Shown here: piece by piece, positions 1,805 through 21,700 of the stretch | How the letters are laid out: every line of letters starts with the position of its first letter | Numbering within the stretch: the stretch's first letter is position 1 | Assembly: GCA_046052125.1 (NCBI GenBank) | Contig: JBJOMY010000003.1 | Coordinates: forward strand, 64,001-128,000 | DNA length: 64,000 nucleotides | Source of the DNA: Cyanobacteriota bacterium | GTDB lineage: Bacteria > Cyanobacteriota > Cyanobacteriia > PCC-6307 > Cyanobiaceae | Direction: 5' to 3' | Position numbers and translations under genes: made by a program | Notes under the pieces: generated by a model | What the model was told of the DNA's origin: nothing | The model's database searches: none | The model's input: only the letters and a program-made list of their open reading frames with translations

Positions 1805-2111
1805 GTCTTGCGAGCATCCTTGGTCTCAATTTGCACGCATGGAAACTGTTGTATTTCATCTGACAAGAAGATGGCGTACGTTCACGCTTTGGCGACCAAC
1901 CCAGTCTTAAACAACTCAGAAAGCCATGCTGGCGGCATGAGGGTCTGGACAGTGATCATTTCGCTCAGGGTTCCATGGGCATCGGATCGCGCTAGCAGTG
2001 CCTCCTCGGGAAGCTTCCACAAACCGTAGGCGTCATCGACGGATCCGAGAACACCGCCCTGCCACAGGTTGATTGCCGCGCAGGCAAAAGCAGTTAGCGC
2101 AGCTGATCCCC

Positions 2112-4366: not shown

Positions 4367-4370
4367 TGCT

Positions 4371-4883: not shown

Positions 4884-4886
4884 GCG

Positions 4887-5453: not shown

Positions 5454-5523
5454 TTTCTGCCTCGGCAACAGGGGATGGCAGCGCCGCGATGGGCTGCCGA
5501 TCCACTGACAGCCGAGACGGGTC

Positions 5524-6384
5524 ATGGCCACTGCTTCCGCAACCCCCAGCACCAGCACCACCCGCAGCGGAGGTGATGGCCACGAACTCCTGGATCTCCA
5601 GGGCTCTGAGACCAGCGAGCAGGACAGCACTCAGGGCGACCACAGCACTGGCCCGGATCCTGCACCCACCGCCAATGAACCCACCCAGGGATCTGGAGGT
5701 GATGGCCTCAGCGAGGCCCTCAAGGCCGAGCGCCGCCGCAGTAACAACCTCGAAAAAGAACTGCGCGGGCTGCGGCAACAGCTGACTCGTTTCTCGGAGA
5801 TCAACCCCGAGGAGTACGCCCGTCTGCAGGAGGCCGAACGCCAAAAGCAGCACCTCGAGCAGCAGCTGGAGCTGCGGGAACGCCAGATGGAGGAGGCCGC
5901 CGCCAAGCGGGTGGCAGCCGTCAGTGCAGAGCGCGACGCCGCCCATGAGCGGGTGCAGGAGCTACGCAAGGAGCGGCTGCTGGAGCGGGCTTTCTCAGAA
6001 GCGGAAGGGCGCACCGGCGGCGATGGGCGCGGCACCTTCTTTCAGGTGTTTCGCTCGATGCTCTGGGACTGCTTCCGGCTGGGCAGCAGCAAGGACGGCG
6101 GCGATGTGCTCGAACCCCTCGACGGCCATGGCCAGCCACTGCTCGGTGACGACGGCCGGCCGATGACCACAGCCGACTACCTCGATCAGCTGCGCATCCA
6201 CCCCGTGTATGGCTTTCTGTTCCAGCAGCGCGGCGCCATGGGTACCGGTGCCATGCCCGCGGGCACTACAGCCGGCAGCCTCGGCGCCAGCGGTTTTGGG
6301 GAGGTGATCAATCCACAGGCGATGAGCGCCAGCGAGCTCTACCGGGCTGGCTTTGTCAGCAATGGCCGCATGGCCCGGCACTGA
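5524..6384 (+). CDS. Putative capsid scaffold protein
   Basis: Acidic disordered N-terminus, long coiled coil (ALKAERRRSNNLEKEL...INPEEY), YGFLF motif and Gly-rich tail, as in phage scaffolds; lies between portal and capsid genes. Confidence 0.65.
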   Translation: MATASATPSTSTTRSGGDGHELLDLQGSETSEQDSTQGDHSTGPDPAPTANEPTQGSGGDGLSEALKAERRRSNNLEKELRGLRQQLTRFSEINPEEYARLQEAERQKQHLEQQLELRERQMEEAAAKRVAAVSAERDAAHERVQELRKERLLERAFSEAEGRTGGDGRGTFFQVFRSMLWDCFRLGSSKDGGDVLEPLDGHGQPLLGDDGRPMTTADYLDQLRIHPVYGFLFQQRGAMGTGAMPAGTTAGSLGASGFGEVINPQAMSASELYRAGFVSNGRMARH

Positions 6385-6442
6385 ACGCTTCTGCCAGCCG
6401 TTCCTACGGTGACATCACCAAGGGGGATTCCCCAGACAGCAA

Positions 6443-7330
6443 GTGATGGCCAGGCAAGAACAGCGGTTGGCGGCCAACGTTCCTGGGCCCTTCTATGTCG
6501 ACGGCAGCTGCATCGACTGCGGCACCTGCTGGCAGTTCGATCCGCTGCACTACGCCCCGACCGGCAGCAGTTCGCGGGTGCAGCGCCAACCGGATGGCGC
6601 TGCCGAACTGCGGCAGGCACTGCTGGCCCTGCAGGCCTGCCCGGTGGCTGCGATCGGCACCAGCCGTGAACTGCTGGCTCAGATGCCCATGGATGGCTTT
6701 CCGGTTCTGATCACGCGCCATGCGGCTGGGGACGTCTACTACTGCGGTTGGGCATCACGGCGCAGCTTTGGTGCCAGCAGCTGGTTGGTGGTGCGCCCTG
6801 ACGGCAACGTGCTGATCGATGTGCCGCGCTGGAGTGCACCCCTCGCCCGGCGCATCAAGGATTTGGGCGGTCTGCGGCGCATCGTGCTGACGCACCGCGA
6901 TGACGTGGCCGATCAGGCGCACTGGTCCCGGGCATTCGGAGCCGAACGCTGGATCCACGCGGCCGACGCCGATGCCGCCCCCCAGGCCGAGCATCAGCTG
7001 AGCGGCAGCGATGCCCTGCACCTGGATGTGGACCTGCAGTTGATCCCCACTCCTGGTCACACAGCTGGCTCGATGGTGGCGGTGCTGGGAGGGCGCGAAC
7101 AGGTGCTGTTCAGCGGCGATCACCTTTGGTGGAACCCGGCGCATCAAGCGGTCGTGGCTTCCAAGGCCTACTGCTGGTGGAACTGGAGTGCGCAGCTGCG
7201 CTCCGTCGAGCGGCTGCTGGATCTCGATGTGGCCTGGCTGCTGCCTGGTCATGGCCATCAGCATCAGTTCACGCCCGGCCAGTGGCGAGTTGCCTTGGAG
7301 CAGACGCTGGCGTACGCCACGGCGCCGTGA
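6443..7330 (+). CDS. Ferredoxin-fused MBL-fold metallo-hydrolase
   Basis: CIDCGTC...CP ferredoxin motif; THRDD, PGHTAGS, FSGDH and LPGHG MBL motifs. Confidence 0.9.
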   Translation: MMARQEQRLAANVPGPFYVDGSCIDCGTCWQFDPLHYAPTGSSSRVQRQPDGAAELRQALLALQACPVAAIGTSRELLAQMPMDGFPVLITRHAAGDVYYCGWASRRSFGASSWLVVRPDGNVLIDVPRWSAPLARRIKDLGGLRRIVLTHRDDVADQAHWSRAFGAERWIHAADADAAPQAEHQLSGSDALHLDVDLQLIPTPGHTAGSMVAVLGGREQVLFSGDHLWWNPAHQAVVASKAYCWWNWSAQLRSVERLLDLDVAWLLPGHGHQHQFTPGQWRVALEQTLAYATAP

Positions 7331-7339
7331 AGAGCAAGC

Positions 7340-7363
7340 AAAAAGGCCCGGCAAGGCCGGGCC
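7340..7363 (-). terminator. Intrinsic terminator
   Basis: GGCCCGGC-AAG-GCCGGGCC stem preceded by an A-run (U-tract on the minus strand), just past the stop of 7378-7593. Confidence 0.65.
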
Positions 7364-7377
7364 AGGAGGCCGCCGCC

Positions 7378-7593
7378 TCAGAGCACCGAGACGGTGCCGA
7401 GGCGCTTGGCGGCCAGCTTGCGGGCCAGCTGATGGGCCAGCTCAGCTGGAATGAAACGCGGCTTCTTCACGGGCTTGCCGCGGCGGCCATAGAAGACCGT
7501 GACGCGCTCGGCAGCGGCGACCTTGAGCCCAGCCGGATAGCTGTGCAGCACCAGCTGACGGATCGGACAGGCCAGAGGAGCAGAGGAGGCCAT
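7378..7593 (-). CDS. Small basic hypothetical protein (71 aa)
   Basis: MASSAPLACPIRQLVLHSYP...KKPRFIPAELAHQLARKL; followed by a terminator and preceded by a hairpin element. Confidence 0.6.
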   Translation of the reverse strand: MASSAPLACPIRQLVLHSYPAGLKVAAAERVTVFYGRRGKPVKKPRFIPAELAHQLARKLAAKRLGTVSVL

Positions 7594-7805
7594 GGGACGG
7601 AGGCGAGGAACACCTGTCCCATCGCCCCGGACGACACGCCCTGGCAAGGGTCGGCGTAGCCGACTCGCGTCAGCCCTTGCCAGGGTGGGGCGAGCAGGGC
7701 GCAGCCCTGCGCTCCGGGGCAGTGCTGGTGATTCCTCGCCGACCCCATGGCCGGACGGCTGCCGGGGCCTGGTTGAGACAGCAGCCGCAACACCGGCTGT
7801 AGAAC

Positions 7806-8486
7806 GTGGCGATGACGGCTCCTGAGAACGCCCACAGCCAGCGCTACACCGATGCCCTGGGCTGGGCGGCTGAGCTGCACCGCGGTCAGCGTCGCAAGGG
7901 CAAGCCGGTTCCTTACATCGCCCACCTGATCGCCGTGAGTGCTCTGGTGTGGGAGGACGGCGGCAGCGAAAACCAGGCGATTGCGGCTCTGCTGCACGAC
8001 GCCATCGAGGATGCGGGTCAGAGCCAGGCCTCGATTGCCGCACGCTTTGGCGAGGAGGTGGCCGCGATCGTGGTGGACTGCACCGACACAGCTGGCCCCG
8101 TGGAGCCCGGCGCCGAAAAGGAACCCTGGCTGCTGCGCAAGACCCGCTATCTCGCCTCGCTGGAGGAGAAGCCGCAGACCTCTTTGCTGGTGACGGCAGC
8201 CGACAAGGCCCACAACGCCCGCGACCTGGTGCTCGATGCCCGCAGCCACCCTGGTGGCTGGGAGCGTTTCACGGCGGGGCTGGAGGGCAGCGCCTGGTAT
8301 CTGCTGCGCGTTCAGCAGGCCCTGAGCCATCGCTTGCCGGAGAGTCGCTCCACCGCCCTACTGGCAGAAGCTGTGCAAGAACTGCTGAGCAGCGAGCCCT
8401 ACCGGCGCCTGGTGCCCCATGGCATCGCTCCGGCGGTGTGGGCCGCCAGCTACCTGGAGCGGCCAGAGGCCCATCCCCAGCCTTGA
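7806..8486 (+). CDS. HD-domain protein, small alarmone hydrolase/Mesh1-like
   Basis: HRGQRRKG..PYIAHL, ALLHDAIED and ADKAHN motifs of the RelA/SpoT hydrolase domain. Confidence 0.85.
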   Translation: MAMTAPENAHSQRYTDALGWAAELHRGQRRKGKPVPYIAHLIAVSALVWEDGGSENQAIAALLHDAIEDAGQSQASIAARFGEEVAAIVVDCTDTAGPVEPGAEKEPWLLRKTRYLASLEEKPQTSLLVTAADKAHNARDLVLDARSHPGGWERFTAGLEGSAWYLLRVQQALSHRLPESRSTALLAEAVQELLSSEPYRRLVPHGIAPAVWAASYLERPEAHPQP

Positions 8487-8525
8487 ACGTCCTGCGGCCG
8501 TTCTCAGCGCTGCGGCCAGACTGGT

Positions 8526-8783
8526 TCAGTTGTCTGGATCGCGGCGTCGGCCGCTGACGATGCTGCCGCCACCGAGCAAGGCCAGGCTGGTTCCAACCGC
8601 CGCCTCAAAGGTCTGCTGCAGGTTCTCGGCGTAGCTGCTGCACACCGGGCCAAGCCGCCGCTGCAGACCAAGCCAGAAGCAACCGCCCAGGCCAGCGGCA
8701 TAGAGCGCGAACTGGGCGATGAAGACCCCCGCCACCGCCCGCAACAGAAAGCGCTCGCGATCAAATCCATCGCCACCAGCCAT
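8526..8783 (-). CDS. Small two-TM membrane protein, holin-like
   Basis: 85 aa, two hydrophobic segments, charged C-terminus, directly downstream of the peptidase gene. Confidence 0.45.
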   Translation of the reverse strand: MAGGDGFDRERFLLRAVAGVFIAQFALYAAGLGGCFWLGLQRRLGPVCSSYAENLQQTFEAAVGTSLALLGGGSIVSGRRRDPDN

Positions 8784-8800
8784 GGCTGTGCTCCTTGGGG

Positions 8801-9547
8801 TCAGGGTTGGCAGGTGAGCAGCCAGCCGGTGCCGGGGCCATCGGCCTGCCAGCGCGGCAGCCAGTTCTTCCAGCTGTAGTGCTGCCCTGCTCCATTGGTG
8901 TTGGCGGTGTAGCCGCCGTGGACCAGGTCGGCCTCACCGTTGGGGTCGTTGTGGATGGCGACTGTCTCGGTGAAACCGATCACCACGCTCCAGTGACCGC
9001 CGCCGCTGGGTGCAGAAGCGGGGCCGTGGTGCAGCCAGCCCACTGCGACCGGTCGCCCCAGGTTGATCTGTTCCTCCAGCGTTGCGCGCTGGCCGTTGGT
9101 GGCGAAGTGGGCAGTCAGCCCCAGGGATCGCAACGCCGCCAACTGAGCTTCTGCCGAGGTGGTGTCGCCATAGCGGGCACGGATGACGTTGTAGGCGTCA
9201 TCGCCACTGACCTTGCCCCAGAAGCGGGCGAGCATGGCGCAGCTGCTGGAGAAGCACTCGCGGTAGCCAGTGCCTGAAGCGTTGTCGTTCTGGTTCTCCC
9301 AGGCCACCGGCAGCGGATTGGCATGGGCCGGGGCTGGGGGAGCTGATGAAAAGGTCTGCCGCCATGGGGCGGCCTCGGTGAGGACCTGTGGATCGGCCGC
9401 CATGACCGCCAGCCGCAATTGCTCGATGCCGGCGAGCTGCTGAGGCTGACCCTTCCAGTGGTCCCAGAACTGACGCCAGCGCTCAGCGCTGAACGGCGCC
9501 TGGTCACCAGGCGCGACGGCAGCCGGAGTGGGAGAGCTTGGAGACAT
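8801..9547 (-). CDS. C39-like cysteine peptidase (putative endolysin)
   Basis: NQNDN...RECFSSSCAM, GGGHWSVVIG and HNDP motifs (Q, C, H, D catalytic layout); alternative start at 9586. Confidence 0.8.
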   Translation of the reverse strand: MSPSSPTPAAVAPGDQAPFSAERWRQFWDHWKGQPQQLAGIEQLRLAVMAADPQVLTEAAPWRQTFSSAPPAPAHANPLPVAWENQNDNASGTGYRECFSSSCAMLARFWGKVSGDDAYNVIRARYGDTTSAEAQLAALRSLGLTAHFATNGQRATLEEQINLGRPVAVGWLHHGPASAPSGGGHWSVVIGFTETVAIHNDPNGEADLVHGGYTANTNGAGQHYSWKNWLPRWQADGPGTGWLLTCQP

Positions 9548-9681
9548 GGCAGCAGGGCAGTCCTCTGCTGTTGCCGCAGCATCCATCCACTGATCAAGGC
9601 CTGCCTGCGTGTCACCTGTCGGGCTGCTTGAGACCGCCGCGCCCGTGATACCTGCGGTTCAGATTGCTTAGCCTGGGGGCC

Positions 9682-9900
9682 ATGACCAACCCCCAGCTCA
9701 CCGAGAACCTGCTCGCCGTGATCCGCAGCCTGCCGGCTGACGATCGCCGCTGGCTGCTCAGGCAGCTGGAGCAGGACAACAGTGACCTGAGTCACGGTGC
9801 CCTGGCTGAGATGGCGATGGCCGGGGGAGCCTTTGACGACCTGGCCGCTGAACCTGAGCTCTACAGCTTCTCCGACGGAGAAGCGATCGTTGCCGGCTGA
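9682..9900 (+). CDS. Putative antitoxin
   Basis: Small acidic ORF coupled (TGATG) to the PemK/MazF gene. Confidence 0.65.
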   Translation: MTNPQLTENLLAVIRSLPADDRRWLLRQLEQDNSDLSHGALAEMAMAGGAFDDLAAEPELYSFSDGEAIVAG

Positions 9901-10247
9901 TGCTCAGCCGCTACGACATCGTGCTTGTCGCCTTCCCTTTCACGGATGGGCCGGCGGCCAAGCCTCGCCCGGCTTTGGTGATCACCACCAGTGATCGCCA
10001 TGGGGATGTGCTGCTGGCCTTCATCAGCTCCAACATCAGCGGCCCAACGGCCAGCGATGAGCTCGACATCCCAGCCGACCATCCAGGCTTCTCAGACACC
10101 GGCCTGAAGGTGAGCTCAAGGCTGCGGCTCAGCCGCATGACAACGCTGGCCATGCCACTCGTGAAACGGCGCATCGGACGACTGCCGCTGGCCTTGCAGA
10201 CGAACTGCCAGCAGGTGCTGCAGCGGGTGATCGGCGCCCAAGGCTGA
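9900..10247 (+). CDS. PemK/MazF family toxin
   Basis: DIVLVAFPFTD...KPRPALVI...TGLKVSS...IGRL. Confidence 0.9.
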   Translation: MLSRYDIVLVAFPFTDGPAAKPRPALVITTSDRHGDVLLAFISSNISGPTASDELDIPADHPGFSDTGLKVSSRLRLSRMTTLAMPLVKRRIGRLPLALQTNCQQVLQRVIGAQG

Positions 10248-10323
10248 ACGCTCTCCTGTGGGGCAGTTCGTGTCGCCTCGGCAATAGCCCCTGACATCAA
10301 TGGGGCCCGGCCCCACCTGTGCC

Positions 10324-11253
10324 ATGGGCCTCACCCTGATCGAGGCAGCCAAATACGAGCACCGGCTTGAGCACCTGGCTGTGCTCAAGACCTTCTCGGA
10401 GGGCGAACTGCTCGCCCGGCTGCCGTTCATGAACATCGCCGGCAGCGGCCTCTTCTATTCCGCCGAGCAGGAGCTGCCCTCGGTGGGCTTCCGCGCCGTG
10501 AACGAGGGCTACACCCAGAGCTACGGCGTGGTGGATCAGCGCGCAGAAGCGGTGCACCTCTTTGGTGGTGATGTGGATGTGGACCGCTCGATCGTGGACC
10601 TGATGGGCCCTGAGGCCCGCGCCAGCCAGATCGAGATGAAGGTGCGCTCGATGCGCCTCACCCTGGAGGCGACCGTGATCAACGGCGACACCGCCAGCAA
10701 CCCCCGCGCCTTTGACGGCTTGAGCAAGCGCCTGCCGCCCGGCAACCCGATGGCGATCAACAACGCCTCCGGTGCCATTCCCGGTGCGCCGCTGAATTTC
10801 GATCGGCTTGATGAGCTGATCGATTCAGTGAATGCCTACGGCGGCAGCAAGGTGCTGGTGATGAGCAAGGCGATGCGCCGCCAGCTCAATGCTCTCGCCC
10901 GCGCCTCCATCGGCGGTGGTGTGTACCAGACCAGCACCAACTCCTACGGGATGACGGTGCACCGCTACCAGGACTGCGACATCCTCACCGTCGACCGCGA
11001 TGCCCAGGGCGTCGAGGTGATGGGCTACGACGAGGCGGGCGGCACCAGCTCGATCTACTGCTGCACCTTTGGCGATCAGGGCGTGACCGGCCTGCAGGGC
11101 CCGTTCCAGGGCCGCTATGGGATCTCGGTGCGGGACCTGGGCGAGGTGCCCGATGCCCCGGTGTTCCGCACCCGCGTGGATTGGTACGTGGGCTTTGCCG
11201 TGCTGCAGCCCCGCGCCGCCGGCCGTCTGTTCAACATCACCCCCGCTGCCTGA
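10324..11253 (+). CDS. Major capsid protein (HK97-fold, resembles the epsilon15 gp7-like family)
   Basis: MGLTLIEAAK...LPSVGFRAVNEG...GGDVDVDR...INGD...FDGL...TSSIY...RTRVDWYVG. Confidence 0.85.
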   Translation: MGLTLIEAAKYEHRLEHLAVLKTFSEGELLARLPFMNIAGSGLFYSAEQELPSVGFRAVNEGYTQSYGVVDQRAEAVHLFGGDVDVDRSIVDLMGPEARASQIEMKVRSMRLTLEATVINGDTASNPRAFDGLSKRLPPGNPMAINNASGAIPGAPLNFDRLDELIDSVNAYGGSKVLVMSKAMRRQLNALARASIGGGVYQTSTNSYGMTVHRYQDCDILTVDRDAQGVEVMGYDEAGGTSSIYCCTFGDQGVTGLQGPFQGRYGISVRDLGEVPDAPVFRTRVDWYVGFAVLQPRAAGRLFNITPAA

Positions 11254-11256
11254 GCC

Positions 11257-11694
11257 ATGGCCCTCACAAACGGCAACCCCTTGATCGATGCGGAGACCAC
11301 CCTGGTGGGCTGGACCAACCGCAGCGCCATCCGCAACACAGAGCACACCTTCCTCTCCGGAGAGGAGGTGCTGCTCAACACCAAGCTCGATGCGGCCTCC
11401 CGCTTCTCGCTGGTGGCCTCCCATCCCGGCGCGCCTGCCGCGGTGGAGGTGGAACTGCTGCTGGCACCGGTACTGCGCGATGGCACCACCGGCAGCTGGA
11501 TCAGTGCCGTCCGCGTTGCCCTACCGGCAGAAGGCGGCCGGGTGGAGGCATTTCTTTCCGGCCATGACATCCAGATCACACCGGCGGATCTGCCCAACCT
11601 CGATCTGCCGGCGGTGTGTTTCGCCAAGGCGCTCGTGACCCCGACCACCCCGGCGGGCATGCACGCGGGCCTGACGGCCACGATTGCGGCCTGA
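11257..11694 (+). CDS. Putative capsid decoration/cement protein
   Basis: 145-aa beta-rich ORF 3 bp after the capsid gene. Confidence 0.5.
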   Translation: MALTNGNPLIDAETTLVGWTNRSAIRNTEHTFLSGEEVLLNTKLDAASRFSLVASHPGAPAAVEVELLLAPVLRDGTTGSWISAVRVALPAEGGRVEAFLSGHDIQITPADLPNLDLPAVCFAKALVTPTTPAGMHAGLTATIAA

Positions 11695-11698
11695 GCCC

Positions 11699-12121
11699 AT
11701 GGCCCGCAAACGCTCCACCAGCCCTGCAGAGGAACCGGCAGCCGAGGAGCAGCCGGCGCAGCCCACGCCGATCGAGCTTCCACCCGCCGCCGCAACCCGC
11801 CACGACCTGGGGGATCCCACCGTGCCGGCCGGCCTGGTGCGCATCAGCAACGGCAGCGGTGAGCGCTTCATCTGGCCGGTGCACCTGGGCGGCTGGCAAC
11901 AACAGGGCTGGACCCTGATCGCTGCCGCCACCGGCCTTCAGATCACGCCGGCACCAACAGCGCCTGCAGCAGTGATCGAGGTGCCGCTGGCCGCAGCAAC
12001 GCCAGAGGCGAGCACAGTCGAACCAATCCCAGACGACGCCGAGTCCGAGTTGGCAGCCACCTGGGAGCTGGAAAGCAGCGCCACAAGCGAGGCGCTGCTG
12101 CTCGACGACCCGCTGCTTTGA
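11699..12121 (+). CDS. Hypothetical virion-associated protein
   Basis: ATG at 11699; Pro/Ala/Glu-rich with a central WPVHLGGWQQQGW motif; in the capsid operon. Confidence 0.55.
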   Translation: MARKRSTSPAEEPAAEEQPAQPTPIELPPAAATRHDLGDPTVPAGLVRISNGSGERFIWPVHLGGWQQQGWTLIAAATGLQITPAPTAPAAVIEVPLAAATPEASTVEPIPDDAESELAATWELESSATSEALLLDDPLL

Positions 12122-12124
12122 GGG

Positions 12125-12913
12125 GTGATCGCTTCCGTGCGCTCCTTTCTTCCCTCCCAAGCGAGCAGCACGGCAGCCAGCCCGCAGCTGATTCGCGTGC
12201 TGCCTCCTCTGGGCTGCCCGGGCGAGAGCGTGTGGGTGCCTCCCGTGGAGGTGAGCCGCTGGGAGCAGCAGGGCTACCGCCGCGCTCCCATCCCCGCCGC
12301 ACCGCTGGAGTTGGCCTGGCTGCCGGATGCGCCTGTGCCCCTGGACCCAGCTGGCAGCACCGCGGTGTTGCTGCTGCTCCAGGCCCGGCCACCGTTGCCA
12401 ACGGCGCTGTCGCTGGATTGGGGTGACGGCAGCGTTGAAACCTGGCCCTGGCCCCGCGGCGACAATGCGCCGCGGCTCCGCCATGCCTATACCTGCGCCC
12501 AGGACTGGCAGGTTTCGGCAGAACTGAGCGGCAGCGGCATCAGCGCCGAGCTGGCGGTGCATCTGCTGGGCTGCCCGATTTGGCCGCCACCGCCACCCCT
12601 GCCGCCGGGGGCGATTCAGCCGCTCATCCCCGGCAGTGGCCTGCTCGGCCAACCGTTTGATGGCCGGCGCCGCGAGCAGTGGCAGCTGCAGCGCTGGAGT
12701 GGCGGCACCAGCAGCGGCGGCGTACCAGCCAGCGATGGCTCCAGCACCCGCTTCCTGCGGGCCGATGGCCTCTGGGCCACCCCGCCGGGCAGTGGCGGTG
12801 GCACCCGCTGGTGGAGCGGCGAGGGGCCACCCGGAGTGCTCCCTGATGCCCAAGCGGGTGACTTCTATCTCGACACCCGCAGCGGTGATCTCTACCAACT
12901 GGAGCTGAGCTGA
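12125..12913 (+). CDS. Putative fibre-base protein with PKD/Ig-like segment
   Basis: LDWGDGS...HAY (PKD-like), RFLRADGLWATP fibre-type motif, C-terminal GDFYLDTRSGDLY. Confidence 0.6.
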   Translation: MIASVRSFLPSQASSTAASPQLIRVLPPLGCPGESVWVPPVEVSRWEQQGYRRAPIPAAPLELAWLPDAPVPLDPAGSTAVLLLLQARPPLPTALSLDWGDGSVETWPWPRGDNAPRLRHAYTCAQDWQVSAELSGSGISAELAVHLLGCPIWPPPPPLPPGAIQPLIPGSGLLGQPFDGRRREQWQLQRWSGGTSSGGVPASDGSSTRFLRADGLWATPPGSGGGTRWWSGEGPPGVLPDAQAGDFYLDTRSGDLYQLELS

Positions 12914-13380
12914 TGCCCTGGACCCACAGCACCAACCTCAAGGGGCCTTCGATGCTGCGGCTGGCGCGGCTACCGGCGGCGCTGAGCACCAGCTCCGGCA
13001 CCAGTTGGCTCACCTTGTTCACCACACCGCTGGCGGCGCAGCAGGTGCTCTCCTTTGCGGCGGAGCTCTACTTCTCCAGCGGCGCCAACAACACCGGCCT
13101 GGTGACCACCCTCTCTGGCCCCGCCGGGCCGCATGCGGTGATTCACAACCTGGTGACGGGTGAATCGCTCACCACCTTCCGCAACCTCACCGCCAGCAGC
13201 TACGACACGCCCCTGATCGGCACCAGCTCCGCCGGCAGTTCGGTGCTCAGGGCTCAGGTGAGCGGCACGGTGGAGAACGGCGCCAATGCCGGCAACCTCA
13301 GCCTGCGTTTTCGCTCAGAGGTGGCCGGCACCGCGGTGACAGTGCTGCGCGGCTCCTGGTGGCAAGTGCTGCAGCACTGA
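12913..13380 (+). CDS. Putative fibre-tip beta-sandwich protein
   Basis: TGATG-coupled to the previous gene; Ser/Thr-rich beta pattern resembling collagen-associated C-terminal head domains. Confidence 0.5.
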   Translation: MPWTHSTNLKGPSMLRLARLPAALSTSSGTSWLTLFTTPLAAQQVLSFAAELYFSSGANNTGLVTTLSGPAGPHAVIHNLVTGESLTTFRNLTASSYDTPLIGTSSAGSSVLRAQVSGTVENGANAGNLSLRFRSEVAGTAVTVLRGSWWQVLQH

Positions 13381-13450
13381 GCTGCGTTCACTCCAGCTCA
13401 CCAACGGCAATAGGGAGTGTTCTCTCTGGCCCTTGGGCCGCTGCTCTGTC

Positions 13451-14011
13451 ATGGCCTGGATTCCCTCCGGTTCACTCAAGGGTCCGCACGGTGATCCCGG
13501 CCCCCAGGGCCCCCAGGGGGTGCAAGGCCAACCCGGTGCCGATGGTGCCCAGGGCGTGCAAGGCCCGCAGGGACCTGCGGGGATACAGGGCGTCGCCGGC
13601 CCAGAAGGACCCCAGGGCCAGCAGGGCATCCAGGGTGCCCCGGGTCTGGGCATCACCTTCAAGGGGCACGTGCCCACGGTGGCGGATCTGCCCGCCGATG
13701 CCGCCCAGGGCGATGCCTACATCGTGCAGGCCGATGACTCCTTCCGCGTCTGGGACGCCACCAGCAGCACCTGGGTGGATGGGGGTTCGATCCAGGGACC
13801 CCAGGGCATCGCCGGCCCGCAGGGACCGCAAGGCCTGCAGGGAGAGCCCGGCCCCCAGGGCCTGCAGGGGGTGGAGGGCCCCAGTGGCCCCCAGGGCAAC
13901 CGCGGCACCGGCTGGTTCACCGGCAGTGGCGCACCCACCACCATTTCCGGCTCCATGCCGGGTGATCTGTACCTGGATCAGACCAGCGGCGATGTGTACG
14001 TGCTGAGCTGA
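13451..14011 (+). CDS. Collagen-like fibre protein
   Basis: Two Gly-X-Y runs (GPQGPQGVQG...) separated by a small knob domain. Confidence 0.9.
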   Translation: MAWIPSGSLKGPHGDPGPQGPQGVQGQPGADGAQGVQGPQGPAGIQGVAGPEGPQGQQGIQGAPGLGITFKGHVPTVADLPADAAQGDAYIVQADDSFRVWDATSSTWVDGGSIQGPQGIAGPQGPQGLQGEPGPQGLQGVEGPSGPQGNRGTGWFTGSGAPTTISGSMPGDLYLDQTSGDVYVLS

Positions 14012-14056
14012 GGCCCGGCGTGGCGTGCTGATCACGCCCGCCGAGCCGGGATGGGC

Positions 14057-14410
14057 TCAGGCCAGCATCAGCCGGCGCTGCGCCTCGAGCTGGGAGCGCC
14101 GCAGCAGCTCCTGCTCGGCCAGCAGCCGCTCATCGAGCTCATCGATGCGGGCCAGGCACTGCTGGATCGCGGGAATCACCTCTTCCTCCAGCAGGGTGAT
14201 CTCCTCTTCTCCATAGGGCTGCTCAATCCAGGTGCGCCGCAGCGCCAGCCCGCGCCGGCGCAGCAGGATCTCCTGCACGGAGCGGAGCGTGGATTCCAGC
14301 AACAGAAAGGGATCTTCCTCTGGTTTGCAGAACGCACCTTCCGGTGCGATAGGCCGGCAGAACGGTGATTCCGCGGAAGGCGGGATGCCAGCAGCAGAGC
14401 GTGTGGCCAT
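14057..14410 (-). CDS. Hypothetical protein (117 aa, coiled coil)
   Basis: ATG-started ORF with protein-like helical composition filling the gap. Confidence 0.6.
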   Translation of the reverse strand: MATRSAAGIPPSAESPFCRPIAPEGAFCKPEEDPFLLLESTLRSVQEILLRRRGLALRRTWIEQPYGEEEITLLEEEVIPAIQQCLARIDELDERLLAEQELLRRSQLEAQRRLMLA

Positions 14411-14520: not shown

Positions 14521-14997
14521 TCAAGGCAGTCGACGCGTCAGTTGCTGCAGGCGTTCCGCGGCCTGTGTGGCTTCCTGCAAGAGCTGATCCCAGTCGTCCG
14601 GCGGATGGCCGCTGGCCAGCATCGACTGGAACACCCGGTAGGCATCGCTCTTGCTGCCGTAGGCGCGCTTGGTGTCGGTGTCGTTGACCCAGCCCAACAC
14701 GATCAGCCGTGAGCGGGTGTGAAACCGGAAGAACAAGCGGTATTGCTGAAAGAACTTGGCGCGTCGCCAGTGGCGATGCGCAGCGCCAAGGGTTGATCCC
14801 TGCTGATACTCCTTGCGGCTGGGGTCCTGGGGGATGTCCTGGAGCATCAGGCGGGTGATGGCCGCCAGGCGCTTGCTGGCGTTTTTGCTGCCATAGCCCT
14901 GTGGATCCTTGGCGCGCAACGCCTCCACCTCAGCGATCAACGCGTCCAGCTGATCCAGAAACAAGGGATGCGCATAGATCGTCCATCCGTTGATCAC
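14521..14997 (-). CDS. yhaV: YhaV family toxin (type II TA)
   Basis: INGWTIYAHPLF, QGSTLG..HRHWRRAKFFQQYRLFFRF, WVND..TKRAYGS. Confidence 0.92.
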   Translation of the reverse strand: MINGWTIYAHPLFLDQLDALIAEVEALRAKDPQGYGSKNASKRLAAITRLMLQDIPQDPSRKEYQQGSTLGAAHRHWRRAKFFQQYRLFFRFHTRSRLIVLGWVNDTDTKRAYGSKSDAYRVFQSMLASGHPPDDWDQLLQEATQAAERLQQLTRRLP

Positions 14998-15365
14998 GCG
15001 TCGTCTGGCAGCGCTTCCTCCAGATCAACCTCGATGCCGCCCACCAGATCCTGCAGCCGCTCAACCAGCTCGGCACCGATGGGCTGCAGCCGCTCGGGAT
15101 GGTTGGCGATGTCCTGCTCCAGCAGCGCCAGAAAGGGAGCCAGTGCCGGGTCGTCGTTGTCTGAATCTGCGCTGACCCGTTGCATCACCACCTCACCGTT
15201 GGCGCGGAAGGCGTAGCGGATGCGGTCGCGCTTGCGCAAACCAAGAGCCCGCCGCACCGGTTGCGGCACGGTGGTCTGATAGCGATCCGTGAGTGCCGAT
15301 TCCACCTCGTCCTGGGGGGTGCCCAGGGAGGCGCCAGCAACATCAGGAGTGGAAAGAGGAGCCAT
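14994..15365 (-). CDS. prlF: PrlF/SohA family antitoxin
   Basis: ESALTDRYQTTVP..VRRALGL, DPALAPFLALLEQDI..HPERL; 4-bp overlap with yhaV. Confidence 0.92.
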   Translation of the reverse strand: MAPLSTPDVAGASLGTPQDEVESALTDRYQTTVPQPVRRALGLRKRDRIRYAFRANGEVVMQRVSADSDNDDPALAPFLALLEQDIANHPERLQPIGAELVERLQDLVGGIEVDLEEALPDDA

Positions 15366-15390
15366 CAGGCCGCCCGCTGAACCTGACACC

Positions 15391-15414
15391 AAAGTAATGC
15401 AGGTGCATTGCCTT
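15391..15414. promoter_or_regulatory. Probable PrlF-YhaV autoregulatory operator
   Basis: Imperfect palindrome AAAGTAATGCA-GG-TGCATTGCCTT about 25 bp upstream of prlF. Confidence 0.55.
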
Positions 15415-15722
15415 GGCGAGGTTGGCGGCTCTGCGCACACGCCTCGGCGCCTTCCGATGGTCGCTCCTGTGCCTTTGGTTGCGCGGTGTTGTCACCCTTT
15501 TCACTAGGGCAGCGGCTCAGCCAGATCAGGCTGGTGGCCTGCATTTTCAGCTCACGCCATGCTCCGTATTCACGGCGACAGAAGCAGCCTTTTGGCAGCC
15601 CTGGCGGCCCACTGGGCCGAACAGCAACTGCAAATCCCGCCGTCGCTGCGGCCTGTGCTACGGCCGATCCACCGCCAGCCAAGGGGCGTGCGCTGAAGGA
15701 ACAGGCCGGAGCAATAAGGCCC

Positions 15723-16352
15723 TCAGCCCCCGCCCACCAACTGCAGGCGCAGGGCGGCGATGGCCTTTTTCTGGGCTCGCTGCACCGCCATGGCGCTGAT
15801 GCCCAGCTTGAGCCCAGCGGCCCGTAGCGACAGCCCCTCCAGCAGGGTGAGCCGCAACGCAGTGGCCTGTGGGGCTGGCAGCTGCTCGACCAGCTGCTCC
15901 ACGGCCAGCTCCTCAGCCCCAAGGCCTGAGGCCAGCTCGGCTGCAGGAGCTTCCAGCTGATCGAGCAGAGAGTGCTCGCCTTCCACCTGGACATCGAGGC
16001 TGACGTGGCCCAGCGGGCAGGTGCCCTTCTCGTGCTGCCGGCGGGAGATGCGCACCAGCCGCACTCGATCGCGCAGGTGGTGGTGCAGCGCCCCGGTGAT
16101 GCAGCGACGCAGATAGGGCTCCGCCGGCTCGCCGGGCTTGCAGCGCGGCACCGAGCGCAGCAGGGCCTCGCGGGCCACCTGGATCAGATCATCCCGCTCC
16201 ACCAGCGGGAACAGGCGCCGGGCCATGACGGAGGCGATGGCATCAGCCAGTGGCAGGTGCTGCAGCACCAGGGCATCGCGCGCAGCAAGGGATGCAGCCG
16301 GCAGGGCAGAGGCCTGCGGCTGGCGCCGGGACGGGGAAGCAAGGGCAGCCAT
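15723..16352 (-). CDS. Alternative sigma-70 factor (group 3, SigF/FliA-like, compact)
   Basis: RDALVLQHLPLA..IA (region 2.1), DDLIQVA, ITGALHHHLRDRVRLVRISR, VSLD, region 4 HTH LSLRAAGLKLGISAMAVQR. Confidence 0.85.
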   Translation of the reverse strand: MAALASPSRRQPQASALPAASLAARDALVLQHLPLADAIASVMARRLFPLVERDDLIQVAREALLRSVPRCKPGEPAEPYLRRCITGALHHHLRDRVRLVRISRRQHEKGTCPLGHVSLDVQVEGEHSLLDQLEAPAAELASGLGAEELAVEQLVEQLPAPQATALRLTLLEGLSLRAAGLKLGISAMAVQRAQKKAIAALRLQLVGGG

Positions 16353-16629
16353 CGGAGGGACGGCACACAACCCCACCCCCAACGGCCGGCCGGATCGCCG
16401 CGGCAAGGACGCACCGCCGAGGCAGGGCCTCAAGGGGCGCCAGGCCTGATCCTTGCCATGGCGTGAGGACTGGCCAACGGGATGCGGTGGGTGTGCGCCG
16501 GCTCACTGGCGGACCATTCCCATGACGTAGCAACAGCAGGCGAGGCCGCAGCTGCCCCAGCAGAAGCGGTCACTGCATGGAAGCCGCACCGGCCTGGCGT
16601 CAACGAAAGGGGGCCGCAGCCCCCAGCCC

Positions 16630-17027: not shown

Positions 17028-18035
17028 TCACTCCCCCCCGCTCTCGGGGCAAACCAGATCGGCCGCTTTGCGGGCATCGCTGAGCACCTGCAGCAGCACC
17101 CGCGGCGACTCTTTGAGCAGCTCCACCCAGTGGCCCAGGTAGGCGGCGTGATTGGCCATGGCACTGCCGATCTCCAAGCGATCACCGAGCAGCACCGCCC
17201 CCAGCTCGGCCACCAGCTCTTCTCGGGCATAGGCCCGGCCGCCATCGCCTGCTTTGCCCATGCCGCCGGAGAGATCACGGGCCAGCCGGGAGCTGTGGCC
17301 TGTGGAATGGATCACCTCATGGGCCCAGGTGGCATAGAGGGCCCCTGCCGAGTGGAAGGCGGTGCGATCAGGGAGCTGGATGCGATCGGGCACCGGCAGG
17401 TAGCAGGCCCGATCTCCTGCAAAGCTCACGGGCACCGGCCAGGTGCTGAGCACCGCCTCAGCATCAGCCAGCCGCTCCGGCTCGGGCCGCCGCACGGCCC
17501 CCTCGGCCTGGCGGCGCTTCTGGATCAGCGCCTCCAGAGCCTCGCCTTCCAGATCGGCGGCATTGAATAGTGCCACCGGCCGATAGCTGACCCAGCTGGG
17601 GCCAGGCTGAACCGACTGCTGGCCATCGGCGCCAGGTAATACCTGGCCACCCTGAGCAACTGAGCCCGGCTCCGCCAGACGGCTTTCGACTCCCAGATGC
17701 ACCTGGGGCCGCAGCACATGCACCGCTTTGCTGCCCTTACGGGGAAAGATCCCCAGGGCCTTGGCCTCCGAGAAGCCACACCAGTAAGGCAGGGCTGATT
17801 CCCGCAGGTGCATGCCCAGGGTGAGCAGTGCCGGGTTTGCTCCACGGTAGCGGCGGCCGGAGAGCAGATTCACGTGATGGCCCCCCGAGGCGGCATCCCA
17901 CTCCCGCCTCCAAGGGGTGGTGCCGGCCTCCAGCAGGGCGACCAGGGAGGCCACCAGCTTCTCCTCAGGGGAGACCTTGGCAGCAGCAGCTCCCTTGGCT
18001 GGCCGGGCGGAACGGGATGGTGAGGCAACAGCCAC
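17028..18035 (-). CDS. ardC: ArdC-like ssDNA-binding antirestriction protein (DUF1738 plus zincin-like domain)
   Basis: LEAGTTPWRREW, NLLSGRRYRGAN, ACYLPVPDRIQLP, AHEVIHSTGH, YAREELVAELGA. GTG start at 18035 preferred; ORF is open from 18101. Confidence 0.9.
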   Translation of the reverse strand: MAVASPSRSARPAKGAAAAKVSPEEKLVASLVALLEAGTTPWRREWDAASGGHHVNLLSGRRYRGANPALLTLGMHLRESALPYWCGFSEAKALGIFPRKGSKAVHVLRPQVHLGVESRLAEPGSVAQGGQVLPGADGQQSVQPGPSWVSYRPVALFNAADLEGEALEALIQKRRQAEGAVRRPEPERLADAEAVLSTWPVPVSFAGDRACYLPVPDRIQLPDRTAFHSAGALYATWAHEVIHSTGHSSRLARDLSGGMGKAGDGGRAYAREELVAELGAVLLGDRLEIGSAMANHAAYLGHWVELLKESPRVLLQVLSDARKAADLVCPESGGE

Positions 18036-18225
18036 GGATGGACAAGCGCAGGACCGCAAGCGCCAGCGCGGCCAGCGGCAAGGGCCGGCCAGGACACTCA
18101 TGGAACAAGTGCCACCGGTGTTTCATCGTCCGTGGCGGGCCGGCTTGCGAAGCCCTTGCGCGGCCGCGCACGCTGAGGATTCCTGCGCGTCGTTTTCCCC
18201 AATGACAGGGTCGGTGTTGGGTGGG

Positions 18226-18798
18226 CTATGGAACTTCGTTGCTATGGCTCCTGGAGAAGCGCATCACGATGGGCGGCTGGAAAGGGGTGAGCTGCTGAGC
18301 GATGGCCTCGAGAAAAGCCACCAGGATCGTGATCAGCAGGATGTAGTCGCGCAGAGATGGATCCTTGGGAACATGGTCAGCCAGTAACGGCTCCAAGATT
18401 CCCCACAGGGGGTTGGCACGGGCGTCCTTATAGACCTCCTGCAATCGCGCGCGATGTGCAGGATCATCGAGCGATGCCGTCTCCGTGGAGTGGGCAAAGG
18501 CATTGCGCAGTTTGCGCAGGGCGTTGAGGGCTCGTTCGATGGGTGGATCAATCAGCCCCAGACGGCTGGCCAAGGCCACTTTGGAGCCGAGGGATCCCAG
18601 GGGGCGATCCGGCAGAAATAACCCATCTTTCTTGTCGGTGGCTGGGGCCATCACCGCCTGCAGCAGGTGCTCCAGGGCCGCATCCACCCGGGCCACGCCC
18701 ACCAGCACCGCACCACGGCCCCGCTCTTCCAGCATCTGCAGGGCGATCTGCTGGGCGGCCTGGGCAACGGCAATAGTGCTGGGGTCGGTAGCCATCAC
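18226..18798 (-). CDS. MltR-like / HEPN-like protein
   Basis: RGAVLVG, RPLGSLGSKVALASRLGLI, RKLRNAFAH (RxxxxH); coupled to the hsdR stop. Confidence 0.7.
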   Translation of the reverse strand: MMATDPSTIAVAQAAQQIALQMLEERGRGAVLVGVARVDAALEHLLQAVMAPATDKKDGLFLPDRPLGSLGSKVALASRLGLIDPPIERALNALRKLRNAFAHSTETASLDDPAHRARLQEVYKDARANPLWGILEPLLADHVPKDPSLRDYILLITILVAFLEAIAQQLTPFQPPIVMRFSRSHSNEVP

Positions 18799-21700
18799 GA
18801 GGAGGACGCTCCTGCGCGTTCACGCAGCTCTTCATAGAGGCCTGTCTGGTTGAGCAGTACCTCCTTCATGCCGTTGCGGATGGACTCGGAGCCCAGGGCC
18901 TGACTGCTCATCGATTGATGGGCATCGAGGGCGCTGATGATGGCGTCCATCAGGGCCGTGCCCAGATCCGGCGACGCGCCAAATTGCTCCTTGCTGTTGG
19001 CGGAGGCCTGTTGCTGCAGGGTGGTGGATTCAAGCAACTTGCCCCGAATCACCGCCTGCACATAGGTCACCTTGTCCTCATCGGTGAGGTCGCCGGTGAA
19101 GAGGTCGTTGAGCTTGGCGATGATTTCGGAGAGCAAGGCCTTGTCTTTGTCCTGCACCGAACCGCCACCTGGGTTGAGGCCCGCCAGCTTCTCGGCATCG
19201 CCCTGGGCCAGGTCGAGCCGTCGTTGCCCCTTGTTGCGCAGGTGATGGTGCGTCAGCACCACCTTGCTCAGGTCCACCGTGGACACCTCCCGCTCGAATT
19301 CCAAGAGCGGTAGCAGCCGCTTGAACACCATCGCCCGCTTCTCGAGAGCCGTGTTGCCGTAGTCGAAGATCTGGCAGAGGAAGGTGTAGAAGCGCACGTA
19401 GGTGCCCATGTCGCTTCTGAACAGGGTCAAGGCATCCAACTCATCCTTGGCGGCCTTGATGCCGTCGGGGTCGTTGATGTCTTCCGCTTGGCGCATGGCC
19501 TGCCTGGCTTCTCTGTAGGCATTCATCAGCCGCTGGGCGATCGGCTCCAGAGCGCCGATCAGCTGGCTCTGCTTGGCGTTGGGGTCGAGTAGCACCTTCA
19601 CCACGCGGTCCACCTCGAACTCGTCGTAGTGACCCTGGCTGTCGAGCTTGGCCTTGAGGTTGAAGATCAGGTCTGGATCAGTGGCCTCGGCCAGCTCAGC
19701 GGTTTCGTAGTAGGCCTTGAAGGCGGCGAGGATGTCGTCGGGTTCGTTGGCGAAGTCCACCACGTAGGTGGTGGTTTTGCCGGGGTGGCAGCGGTTCAGG
19801 CGAGAGAGGGTCTGCACCGCCTGAATGCCGGAGAGGCGGCGATCCACATACATGCCGCAGAGCAGCGGCTGATCGAAGCCCGTCTGGAACTTGTTGGCCA
19901 CCAGCAGGATCTGGAACTCATCGCCCTTGAATGCCTCACGGATGTCGCCCTTCATGCCGGGGTTGAGGGTGCTGCTGCGCTCGGTGAAGGGTTCAGGGCC
20001 GGATTCGGCGTCGTTCACCTCACCGCTGAAGGCCACCAGGGTGCCCAGCGGGTAGCCCTTGTCTTTGATGTACTTGTCGATCGCCAGCTTCCAGCGCACG
20101 GCTTCTTTTCTGGAGCCCACCACCACCATCGCCTTGGCCTTGCCATCGAGCAGCGGAGCGACGAACTTGAGGAAGTGCTCCACGATGATCTGCACCTTCT
20201 GGGCGATGTTGTGCGGGTGAAGCTTCACCCAGCCCATCAGCTTCTTCTTGGCGGCACTCCGCTCCACCTCCTCGTCACTCACGCTTTGGCCGCCCTGAGC
20301 AAGGCGGAAGGCCAGTGAGTACGAGGTGTAGTTCTGCAGGACATCGAGGATGAAGCCCTCTTCAATCGCCTGCCGCATTGAGTAGACGTGGAACGGCTCA
20401 GGCAGGTTCCCGTCACCGGCTGGCTCGTTGGGGTTAGGCCGTCGACCGAACAGCTCCAGGGTCTTTGCTTTGGGCGTGGCGGTGAATGCCACGTAGGTGA
20501 TGCCGTTCTCCTTGACCCGGTCGGCCATTTGAGCGGCCAGGACCTCGTCCATACCAACCTCGCCACCGTCGGCAAGGTCAGCTGCTTCTGAGGCACTGAG
20601 CACCTTCTTGAGCTTCTCAGCGGCCTGTCCCGTCTGGGAGCTGTGGGCCTCGTCGGCAATCACGGCAAACCGCTTGCCTTCCGTGGCCGTGAGCTCTCGG
20701 ACGGCTTCGAGGGCAAAGGGAAAGGTCTGAATCGTGCAGACCACAACCTTCTTGTCGCCGCTCAGGGCCTGGGCCAGCTTCCCGCTCTTGCTGCCGTCTT
20801 CGCTCGTAATCGAAGCGACGACACCTTTTTTCCGCTCAAACGACTCCAGGGCCTCCTGCAGCTGGGTGTCGATCACGTTGCGGTCGCTGACCACCAACAC
20901 CGAGTCGAAGACCTTTTTGTTCTCAGCGTCGTGGAGCTCGGAGAAGAAGTGGGCTGTCCAGGCAATGGAGTTCGTTTTGCCAGAGCCGGCCGAGTGTTGA
21001 ATCAGGTACTTCTGCCCTGGCCCTTCACTCCGCACGGCGTCCTGAAGCAGGCGGGTGACAACGAGCTGGTGGTAGCGGGGGAAGAGCACCCGAGACACCT
21101 GCTTCTTCTTGTTCCGCTCGGCAATGCAGTAGCGACCAAGGATTTCCAGCCAGCTCTCCCGCTCCCACACCTCCTGCCATAGGTAGTCAGTGGGGTAGCC
21201 GGGGCCGTCGGGCACCGGGTTGCCGGCCCCACAGTTCTTGCCGCCAGGGTCGCTGCCTTTGTTGAAGGGCAAGAACACCGTTGCAGGGCCAGCGAGCTTC
21301 GTAGTCATGCGGACTTCGCGGGTGCTCACGGCAAAGTGCACCAGCGCACCGCTGGGGAAGCTCAGAAGCGGTTCAGGTGTTTTGCCGGCGAGCTGAGGCA
21401 GGCGGTCGGTCTTGTATTGCCACACCGCGTCTTCTATCGACTGGGTGTTGTCGGTCTTCAGTTCGACCGTGGCGACCGGAATGCCATTGAGGAAGAGCAC
21501 CAGGTCGATGCAGTTCTCGTTGTGCAGCGAGTACCGCACCTGGCGAACGACTCGCAGGCGGTTGGCGTTGTAGCGGGCCAGGATTTCTGGGTTGAGGCCC
21601 AGGGCGGGTTTGAACTCCGCCAGCTTGAGGGCCTTGGGCAGACCCATGACCTCGATGCCATTGCGAAGCAGGTCGAGCGTTCCTTGCTGGTCGAGCTGTT

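Follow-up and report, generated by a model that had tools for sequence, protein, structure and literature searches.

Phage fibres assembled from several pieces, anchor-branch receptor-binding systems and collagen-like phage fibres are already known. In the long tail fibre of T4, several proteins (gp34, gp35, gp36 and gp37) are joined end to end, and in the anchor-branch systems of podoviruses and CBA120-like phages, such as the K1-5/SP6 adaptor and the Klebsiella KP32-type pairs, a virion-binding protein offers a docking site to exchangeable receptor-binding proteins that carry a short conserved N-terminal piece. Here, we describe a locus in which fibre pieces are probably joined end to end by a small knob domain that is split between polypeptides. 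The locus belongs to a Cyanobium prophage-like element and lies in the window analysed here, a stretch of 64,000 nucleotides (nt) of contig JBJOMY010000003.1 (assembly GCA_046052125.1, Cyanobacteriota bacterium). It consists of three genes that encode a proposed fibre anchor (gene A), a proposed tip protein (gene B) and a collagen-like rod.

The knob motif is known in continuous form from other phages. The whole motif is present in one chain in the tail fibres of Erwinia phages pEp_SNUABM_01 and Hena1 and of Agrobacterium phage Atu_ph07, in a collagen-like protein of Bacillus phage Thrax1 and in Streptomyces phages Endor1 and Francob, and several of these copies stand directly before Gly-X-Y repeats, as does the motif described here. 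However, in those fibres the motif is contained in one polypeptide, whereas here one chain stops past the third strand and the next protein starts two residues before the conserved tryptophan.

The T4 long fibre resembles the arrangement that we propose in the non-covalent assembly of separately encoded segments with the receptor-binding piece last, but it contains no collagen, has other junction structures, includes a monomeric hinge (gp35) and depends on dedicated chaperones; no sequence likeness to it was found. The anchor-branch systems dock through folded N-terminal domains or T4 gp10-like modules, whereas here the docking domain would be completed by the first strand of the partner. In chaperone-usher pili, an N-terminal strand completes the incomplete beta domain of the previous subunit and so allows chains to form; however, these are built of monomeric immunoglobulin-like pilins with the help of a periplasmic chaperone and an usher, whereas the pieces proposed here would be trimers of a different fold, so that the likeness is one of analogy only. 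Chaperone-usher donor-strand complementation itself was considered and set aside: the scans of the neighbouring genes against Pfam and PHROGs named no pilin, chaperone or usher family, and the weak structural matches of the knob are phage tailspike domains.

Outside phages, C1q and Bacillus BclA combine a collagen rod with a trimeric jelly-roll head, comparable to the tip considered here, the model of which matches tumour necrosis factor (TNF)-like lectins, and BclA was also a weak match to the collagen region of the rod (1wck, expectation value (E) 0.065). In the window, by contrast, stalk and head are encoded by separate genes, the products of which end or start with half a knob. The trimerisation domains of collagens XV and XVIII (3n3f, 9bnb) are likewise small beta-rich units that flank a triple helix, and the internal knob of the rod aligns to that of collagen XV (3n3f) over 50 of 53 residues with Z 4.9, below the level deemed meaningful; with no sequence relation, this is a functional analogy only. 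What appears to be new is that one small domain forms the junction and is shared between two polypeptides, with the break in a fixed loop, and that phages of cyanobacteria and actinobacteria alike have kept this arrangement. We found no description of such a split knob in the literature searched, which is weak evidence since subscription journals were not covered.

A knob motif cut at protein termini

Downstream of the major capsid gene, two genes of 145 amino acids (aa) each are followed by gene A, gene B and the collagen gene (Table 1). The TGA of gene A (12911-12913) overlaps the ATG of gene B by one base, and the rod gene begins 70 nt after gene B. The rod was read from the ATG at 13451 and not from an alternative TTG start listed at 13433, because its homologues begin at MAW there.

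As the earlier note had pointed out, a knob motif is cut at the termini of these proteins. Gene A ends in TRWWSGEGPPGVLPDAQAGDFYLDTRSGDLYQLELS (longer C-terminal stretch, WWSGEGPPGVLPDAQAGDFYLDTRSGDLYQLELS) and the rod in GWFTGSGAPTTISGSMPGDLYLDQTSGDVYVLS (longer stretch, WFTGSGAPTTISGSMPGDLYLDQTSGDVYVLS), and the two C-termini share the pattern WxxGxGxP..GDxYLD..G..Y.L, the first half of the knob, read as WWSGEGPP..GDFYLDTRSGDLYQLELS in gene A (residues 229-262) and as WFTGSGAP..GDLYLDQTSGDVYVLS in the rod (residues 155-186). Gene B starts with MPWTHSTNLKGP and the rod with MAWIPSGSLKGP, which have the N-terminal pattern M-x-W..LKGP, the second half, in common; hereafter we call the two halves the socket and the plug. 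In addition, the rod contains an intact knob, FKGHVPTVADLPADAAQGDAYIVQADDSFRVWDATSSTWVDGGSIQGPQG, between two Gly-X-Y segments. In the alignment of the gene A family, the C-terminal motif accounts for 9 of the 28 invariant columns (G232, G234, P236, G245, D246, Y248, L249, G254 and L259).

Table 1. Features of the split-knob locus and of its surroundings in the window (positions of the window; strand where recorded)
Feature	Position	Strand	Remarks
Portal	2073-3503		phrog_145
DUF429	3500-4474	-	among head genes
Scaffold	5524-6384		phrog_206
Ferredoxin and metallo-beta-lactamase fusion	6443-7330		among head genes
MazF	9900-10247		among head genes
Major capsid protein	10300..11253	+	phrog_212, E 1.6e-70; PF20911 and PF17236
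Gene A, proposed fibre anchor	12125..12913	+	GTG start, 262 aa; terminal first half of knob
First half of knob, gene A C-terminus	12809..12910	+	residues 229-262
Gene B, proposed tip protein	12913..13380	+	155 aa; second half of knob, then beta-sandwich head (residues 15-155)
Second half of knob, gene B N-terminus	12913-12948		residues 1-12
Collagen-like rod	13451..14011	+	186 aa, both knob halves; PF01391; tail-fibre PHROGs
Second half of knob, rod N-terminus	13451..13486	+	
Intact internal knob of rod	13658..13807	+	residues 70-119, between two Gly-X-Y segments
First half of knob, rod C-terminus	13913..14008	+	residues 155-186
YhaV/PrlF	14521-15440	-	
Sigma factor	15723-16433	-	
ArdC-like	17028-18101	-	
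1043-aa open reading frame	18795-21926	-	putative; translation resembles type I restriction enzyme

The occurrence of the terminal half-knob pattern in the window genes is far beyond chance. Across the six frames of the whole 2.64-Mb genome, only two of 24,457 open frames of at least 60 aa have the first-half pattern at their end, namely gene A and the rod. The second-half pattern was found at an ATG seven times in the same scan; two of these are gene B and the rod, and the other five are frames of 58-79 aa with poor likeness.

The register of the break was read from a profile of 50 positions built on 8 continuous copies of the motif. All 14 C-termini compared begin at positions 1-14 of this profile and end at positions 21-36, with E from 1.7e-8 (rod, positions 1-35) to 0.046; gene A covers positions 1-36 with E 3.5e-4. 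Among the 15 N-termini, 11 align at positions 40-50 from residue 2-4, each match being weak alone as it extends over ten positions; the rod aligns at positions 41-50 from residue 2, and the four that are not so aligned are NBR1 gp18, phiGD17-1 gp26 and two Cyanobium proteins. Because the C-termini and N-termini map to adjoining parts of the profile, the break is located in a short loop between the conserved Tyr and the conserved Trp. Thus, in the window proteins all elements of the motif are present in register but over two chains, as a split variant. By tblastn, a continuous copy of 46 aa spans the boundary between gp16 and gp17 of Nocardia phage NBR1 with 100% cover and 36.7% identity.

The earlier note had likened the terminal halves to the internal knob of the rod. 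In a profile of internal knobs, 13 of 15 N-termini align at positions 37-50 (rod, 38-50, E 7e-4). For the first half, the likeness is only weak at sequence level: the C-termini are seen poorly by that profile (E 0.09-1.1) and match the continuous motif of other phages much better.

In the AlphaFold2 (AF2) monomer model of the rod (68-row alignment, mean predicted local distance difference test score (pLDDT) 69), four strands form the internal knob (69-74, 88-92, 97-102 and 107-110; pLDDT 89-94) and three the C-terminal half (155-158, 173-176 and 181-185; pLDDT 80-90), and the intervening collagen parts have pLDDT 36-57. At the N-terminus, DSSP assigns a strand to residues 3-8, with mean pLDDT 85 over residues 1-10; by position, this corresponds to the fourth strand of the internal knob. 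In the model of gene B, which served as a control because it has no socket in its chain, residues 1-10 are coil with pLDDT 46. This contrast between the two modelled N-termini is indirect evidence that fits a pairing of plug and socket.

Conservation of the split and exchange of the plug

The same split is kept by homologues, a point that the earlier note had proposed to check. Of 100 gene A homologues (38-90% identity, 186-284 aa), 94 stop 3-5 residues past the conserved aromatic residue, that is, within the first half; the six exceptions are 152-264 aa long, and two of the six have unrelated residues in place of the first half. Fusion across the junction, which the note had named as the mark of a recent fission or frameshift, was not observed: among the 100 near-length homologues and lengths up to 459 aa there is no fused form of gene A and its downstream gene, and a search of proteins of 460-2000 aa returned a single match that is limited to an FLRADGxW repeat.

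Furthermore, we collected 70 related loci (66 genome contigs and 4 viral contigs), of which 68 contain a gene A that ends in the first half. With a plug gene defined by the start M-x(1-4)-W-x(3-9)-[LIVM]-x-G, at least one plug-bearing gene lies downstream of gene A in 62 loci and at least two in 53; five loci have too little flanking sequence to judge, and in L022 plug-bearing genes are present below the filter on G+C at third codon positions and thus outside the count. The next gene lies within -1 to +3 nt of gene A in 21 related loci, and the junction layouts include the 1-nt overlap, distances of +2 or +3 nt, gaps of 34-1437 nt and an inserted reverse-strand gene. In this last layout, seen in L006, L017 and L043 (e.g., L043:5757-6129), an opposite-strand gene of about 60 aa separates a gene A ending in YAFSA from gene B, so that gene A and gene B need not be translationally coupled. 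As the layouts vary, a frameshift or read-through is unlikely to be the point of the arrangement. The split is therefore conserved and ancient, and a recent fission or frameshift does not account for it.

The plug is the only feature common to otherwise unrelated proteins downstream of gene A. In various loci, it precedes the TNF-like tip, a 435-aa right-handed beta-helix (PF13229), a 278-aa fibre, a 128-aa protein or collagen fibres of 344-449 aa, and the two of these fibres that were translated (344 and 414 aa) end in an Lcl_C-like domain. The hallmark of anchor-branch systems, a short N-terminal piece on unrelated receptor-binding proteins beside the anchor gene, is found in 62 of 68 loci. 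Of the 120 plug-bearing genes counted, 111 encode G, A, P, S or T directly behind the initial Met, which, given the specificity of methionine aminopeptidase, fits removal of the Met.

Of the best 120 rod homologues (102-326 aa), both halves are present in 71, the first alone in 15, the second alone in 9 and neither in 25; the length of the 71 is mostly 177-193 aa. Two variants of the arrangement were also seen. In L062, L063, L066, L068, L069 and L074 (at about 5735-6104), tiny proteins of 66-84 aa directly after gene A start with the plug M[GS]W[TS]P[TS]G[DE]SL[LR]GP and end earlier in the motif, at ..PGDLWIDT[TN]; therefore, the break point can sit at a second position. In addition, a long collagen fibre at L074:9522-10735 is apparently frameshifted, with frames at 9522-10157 and 10067-10735, the second of which starts within the GDMYLDTVSGTVYKL region.

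When the collagen protein and the gene A C-terminus were compared with phage records by tblastn, the same design was recovered from phages that are only distantly related. Nocardia phages NBR1 and KYD2, Corynebacterium phage EmiRose (gp24, gp25 and gp26) and Mycobacterium phage phiGD17-1 (gp24, gp25 and gp26) possess a trio of consecutive genes for anchor, rod and tip, in that order. The anchor, of 76-98 aa, ends in the first half, e.g., GDYYIDTSTGTIYRLGD; the rod, a collagen of 187-211 aa, starts with MAW..G[NS][IL].GP, has an internal knob and ends in the first half; and the tip starts with M-A/G-W. In NBR1 and KYD2, specifically, a 96-aa protein with the C-terminus just given is followed by a collagen of 187 and 193 aa, respectively, that runs from MAW..GNIQGP to GDMYLDT.TGDVYLLS, and by a 125-aa protein that begins MAWDKVA. 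Six of the eight actinophage junctions examined (L078, L079, L080 and L081) are in frame, with the stop and 1-4 codons between the genes (both junctions of KYD2, both of EmiRose, that between gp16 and gp17 of NBR1 and that between gp25 and gp26 of phiGD17-1); this may be chance, NBR1 and KYD2 being related, although some read-through at a low level is conceivable.

Additionally, Pasteurella phage PMP-GADVASU-IND (L083:1175-2700) encodes a 477-aa protein with the first half at its C-terminus, GDWWLDTDAMELHEITGV. One base past the stop codon of this gene, an unannotated TTG would start MAITSEIIGKLGG, a plug without Trp that resembles the MATLVGNLRGP class.

A proposed anchor-rod-tip fibre and its alternatives

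We consider it fairly probable that the split knob links separate pieces non-covalently into an anchor-rod-tip fibre. On this reading, a small beta-stranded domain is formed by the motif W-x-x-G-x-G-x-P ... G-D-x-Y-L-D ... G-x-x-Y-x-[KL] ... W ... [NS]-[LI]-[KR]-G. In this Cyanobium element, as in several actinophages, its chain is broken in the loop that separates strand 3 from strand 4, so that strands 1-3 close one protein and strand 4, with the conserved Trp, opens the next. The C-terminal first half, as a trimer, would present an open docking site, the socket, and the N-terminal second half of another trimer, the plug, would fill it, so that the knob is restored non-covalently. The anchor would be gene A, with its N-terminal domain on the virion and its socket at the C-terminus; the 186-aa collagen protein would be the rod, with plug and socket at opposite ends; and gene B would provide a plug-bearing head, TNF-like and probably sugar-binding. 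The likeliest product would be anchor-rod-tip, with anchor-tip also possible, and a single type of plug would allow unrelated receptor-binding modules to be swapped. In this account, the split itself, its retention among homologues, its register relative to unbroken copies and the use of the plug on different modules are observed, and we infer the binding of plug to socket, the stoichiometry of the trimers, the order of assembly and the attachment of the anchor to the head or the tail. The union of rod and tip would be a natural one, because relatives of the tip domain are often fused straight to collagen repeats.

If plug and socket do bind, the arrangement would explain how fibres are fixed with only about 12 residues before the collagen helix and how very different receptor-binding heads are exchanged behind one anchor. 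It would also provide an annotation rule for actinophages and cyanobacterial prophages, namely a gene ending in GDxYLD..G..Y.L.. followed by genes that start with M-x-W, which are now mostly labelled 'hypothetical' or 'minor tail protein'. Furthermore, the split knob would add to the few natural examples of trimerisation domains distributed over more than one polypeptide, and would provide a small natural connector for collagen-based protein assemblies or for the re-targeting of phages.

Several observations weigh against this account. In the 344-414-aa fibres, the first-half motif (GDLYLDLLTGTVYQL) continues into a different domain in cis, and, because another domain follows it there, the first half is not strictly in need of the W..LKGP strand. 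The tips NBR1 gp18 and phiGD17-1 gp26 retain M-A/G-W alone and not the whole plug. In the large group of loci where gene A ends in YELSA, the first plug gene lies mostly about 700-1400 nt downstream (34-112 nt in five loci), and this group has two plug proteins for one free socket. Mutual information between alignment columns at the two ends of the rod family does not stand out, with rank 64 of 16,290 for the best pair. As for the models, the low confidence at the N-terminus of gene B might result from the alignment by itself, which holds few plug-bearing rows, and the partner strand of rod residues 3-8 cannot be read from the AF2 output: DSSP calls a strand only given a partner strand, and the assignment came without model coordinates.

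An unlikely but still serious alternative is that there is no docking in trans and that the halves are self-sufficient caps, the C-terminal one trimerising and the N-terminal one capping the collagen, with the ends serving as recombination joints and the virion contacts lying elsewhere. The fibres in which an unrelated domain follows the first half in cis would fit this, as would the Pasteurella phage protein, which ends in the first half with no plug on the next annotated gene, the socket of the rod, which is confidently folded in the AF2 monomer, and the plug-bearing modules, which are clearly shuffled among loci. However, where the triple helix follows immediately on a plug of 12 residues, no further part of the fibre is an obvious site of attachment; in a model without a socket, the plug is disordered; the position of the break is constant, in one particular loop of a motif that other phages have in one piece; and socket-bearing and plug-bearing genes stay neighbours across phyla. 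Moreover, the two plug-coding stretches of the window share little DNA identity, so that no recent recombination is visible there.

The earlier note had gone further and proposed that rods add to one another head to tail, plug into socket, so that the fibre is anchor-(rod)n-tip with a length set by relative expression. We regard this as improbable. Both halves are indeed present on the rod, as on the 71 homologues mentioned above, and the two ends are conserved together from cyanobacterial to actinobacterial phages. The four homologues with a plug that lacks Trp (MATLVGNL[RK]GP) are the only four of 76 with a C-tail of 5 residues, a joint change at both ends, but these four proteins may be one clade and thus one evolutionary event. 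The high confidence of the N-terminal strand in the AF2 monomer, where the rod's own socket is present, would agree with self-pairing; yet none of this discriminates self-pairing from pairing with anchor and tip, which have the same types of ends. The rod looks like a defined spacer, because its length is tightly kept and each phage has exactly one rod gene, between anchor and tip, and the actinophage order of anchor, rod and tip, in three lineages, fits a defined three-piece fibre at least as well. In addition, most related Cyanobium loci are without any rod, and we know of no virion fibre of undefined length. The promoter of its own that the note had ascribed to the collagen gene was not recovered, a consensus scan of 11900-14300 having yielded no sigma-70-like site.

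A broader version, in which the split knob is a general, phylum-spanning snap-fastener, is doubtful as well. Any trimer of three-strand halves would then accept any trimer with the Trp strand, docking would set the register of the collagen, the rod would add to itself, and relative expression would govern both length and choice of tip, so that the virus particle carries a collagen polymer of variable length.

Finally, the idea that the split is only apparent, the product of a frameshift or stop read-through that makes a fusion, or the remains of a broken single gene, agrees with the in-frame actinophage junctions but is very improbable given the widely varying junction layouts (the intervening reverse-strand genes included), the absence of a slippery heptamer at 12889-12913, the own ATG of every downstream gene and the retention of the split in 94 of 100 homologues with no fused form found.

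The proteins and their genomic setting

Gene A consists of an N-terminal domain with GCPG and WGDG motifs, a proline linker, an FLRADGxWxxP motif and the terminal first half. It matched no Pfam or PHROG family. Anchors of anchor-branch systems carry a recognised virion-binding N-terminal domain, such as a T7 gp17-like one; the N-terminal domain of gene A gave no Pfam, PHROG or PDB sequence match. In the PDB search, gene A retrieved only collagens or chance WD-repeat matches, and in the ESM Atlas its N-terminal region retrieved only its own relatives. The FLRADGxWxxPP motif (residues 201-222, window 12725-12790) lies just upstream of the socket, is repeated three times in an unrelated 813-aa protein (P0259) and precedes the tip domain in several relatives of the tip; it is another mobile fibre motif. 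The protein encoded at 11684-12121 shows a W..QQG[WY] likeness to the N-terminus of gene A that is not significant (E 0.12).

Gene B likewise matched no Pfam or PHROG family. Its AF2 monomer model contains a confident beta-sandwich head (pLDDT 89.2, predicted template modelling score 0.81), for which Foldseek returned the TNF-like lectins 9ib6 (prob 1.00, TMq 0.55, E 2.9e-4) and 2wq4 (prob 1.00, TMq 0.48). With these moderate template modelling scores, the head is probably TNF-like and sugar-binding. It is a widespread C-terminal domain, with 541 matches. Two distant tip proteins, P0139 and P0126, also start with MPW, and scans of viral contigs with these two gave no usable gene context.

The rod matched the collagen triple helix repeat family PF01391 in two stretches (E 5.8e-16, 58.5 bits vs a cutoff of 27.2) and many tail-fibre families of PHROGs, among them phrog_819 (1.5e-30), phrog_3904 (8e-28) and phrog_1806, 'collagen like minor tail' (9.3e-12). 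PDB sequence searches with the rod and with its internal knob returned only collagens or chance WD-repeat matches, and Foldseek on the rod model returned nothing at E <= 0.001. A wide structural search with the internal knob found only weak neighbours, all with Z <= 5.4, namely small domains of phage tailspikes and the trimerisation domain of collagens XV and XVIII.

Pfam and PHROG scans place phage head genes at 2,000-14,000 of the window, with an endolysin-like gene and toxin-antitoxin genes between them, and across 1-26000 non-phage and defence-type genes are interspersed among the head genes. Neither a terminase nor a tail-tube gene was named among the window open reading frames scanned, and the element may be decayed or a satellite-like particle. 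The order of capsid gene, two small genes and gene A is the same in the window and in the three related loci that were laid out (L025, L019 and L063). In Streptomyces phage Francob, gp29 (L086:1156-1770) has two continuous copies of the motif, and its gene is flanked by those for the major capsid protein and the head-to-tail adaptor. Gene A is placed likewise behind the capsid gene, and these fibres may be head fibres rather than tail fibres.

The surrounding genome (2.64 Mb, about 66% G+C) has freshwater Cyanobium and Synechococcus as relatives and contains one copy of the module of capsid gene, gene A and fibre. In other genomes, this module is present in many copies (loci L023-L076), with 7 loci in Cyanobium sp. 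Cruz-8D1, 5 in Synechococcus sp. BA-132 and 5 in one LacPavin metagenome-assembled genome, a multiplicity within single genomes that is unusual for an ordinary prophage.

Contigs of four metatranscriptome libraries, from riverine and outdoor water in four studies, match window 11900-14100, many at 99% or more. In each of the four runs, the collagen gene has the greater contig depth in sum, a measure that cannot rank genes and that is inflated by related collagen genes of other strains and possibly by DNA carry-over in the libraries. One contig of 660 nt corresponds exactly to 13430-14089, that is, to the collagen gene from 21 nt upstream of its ATG.

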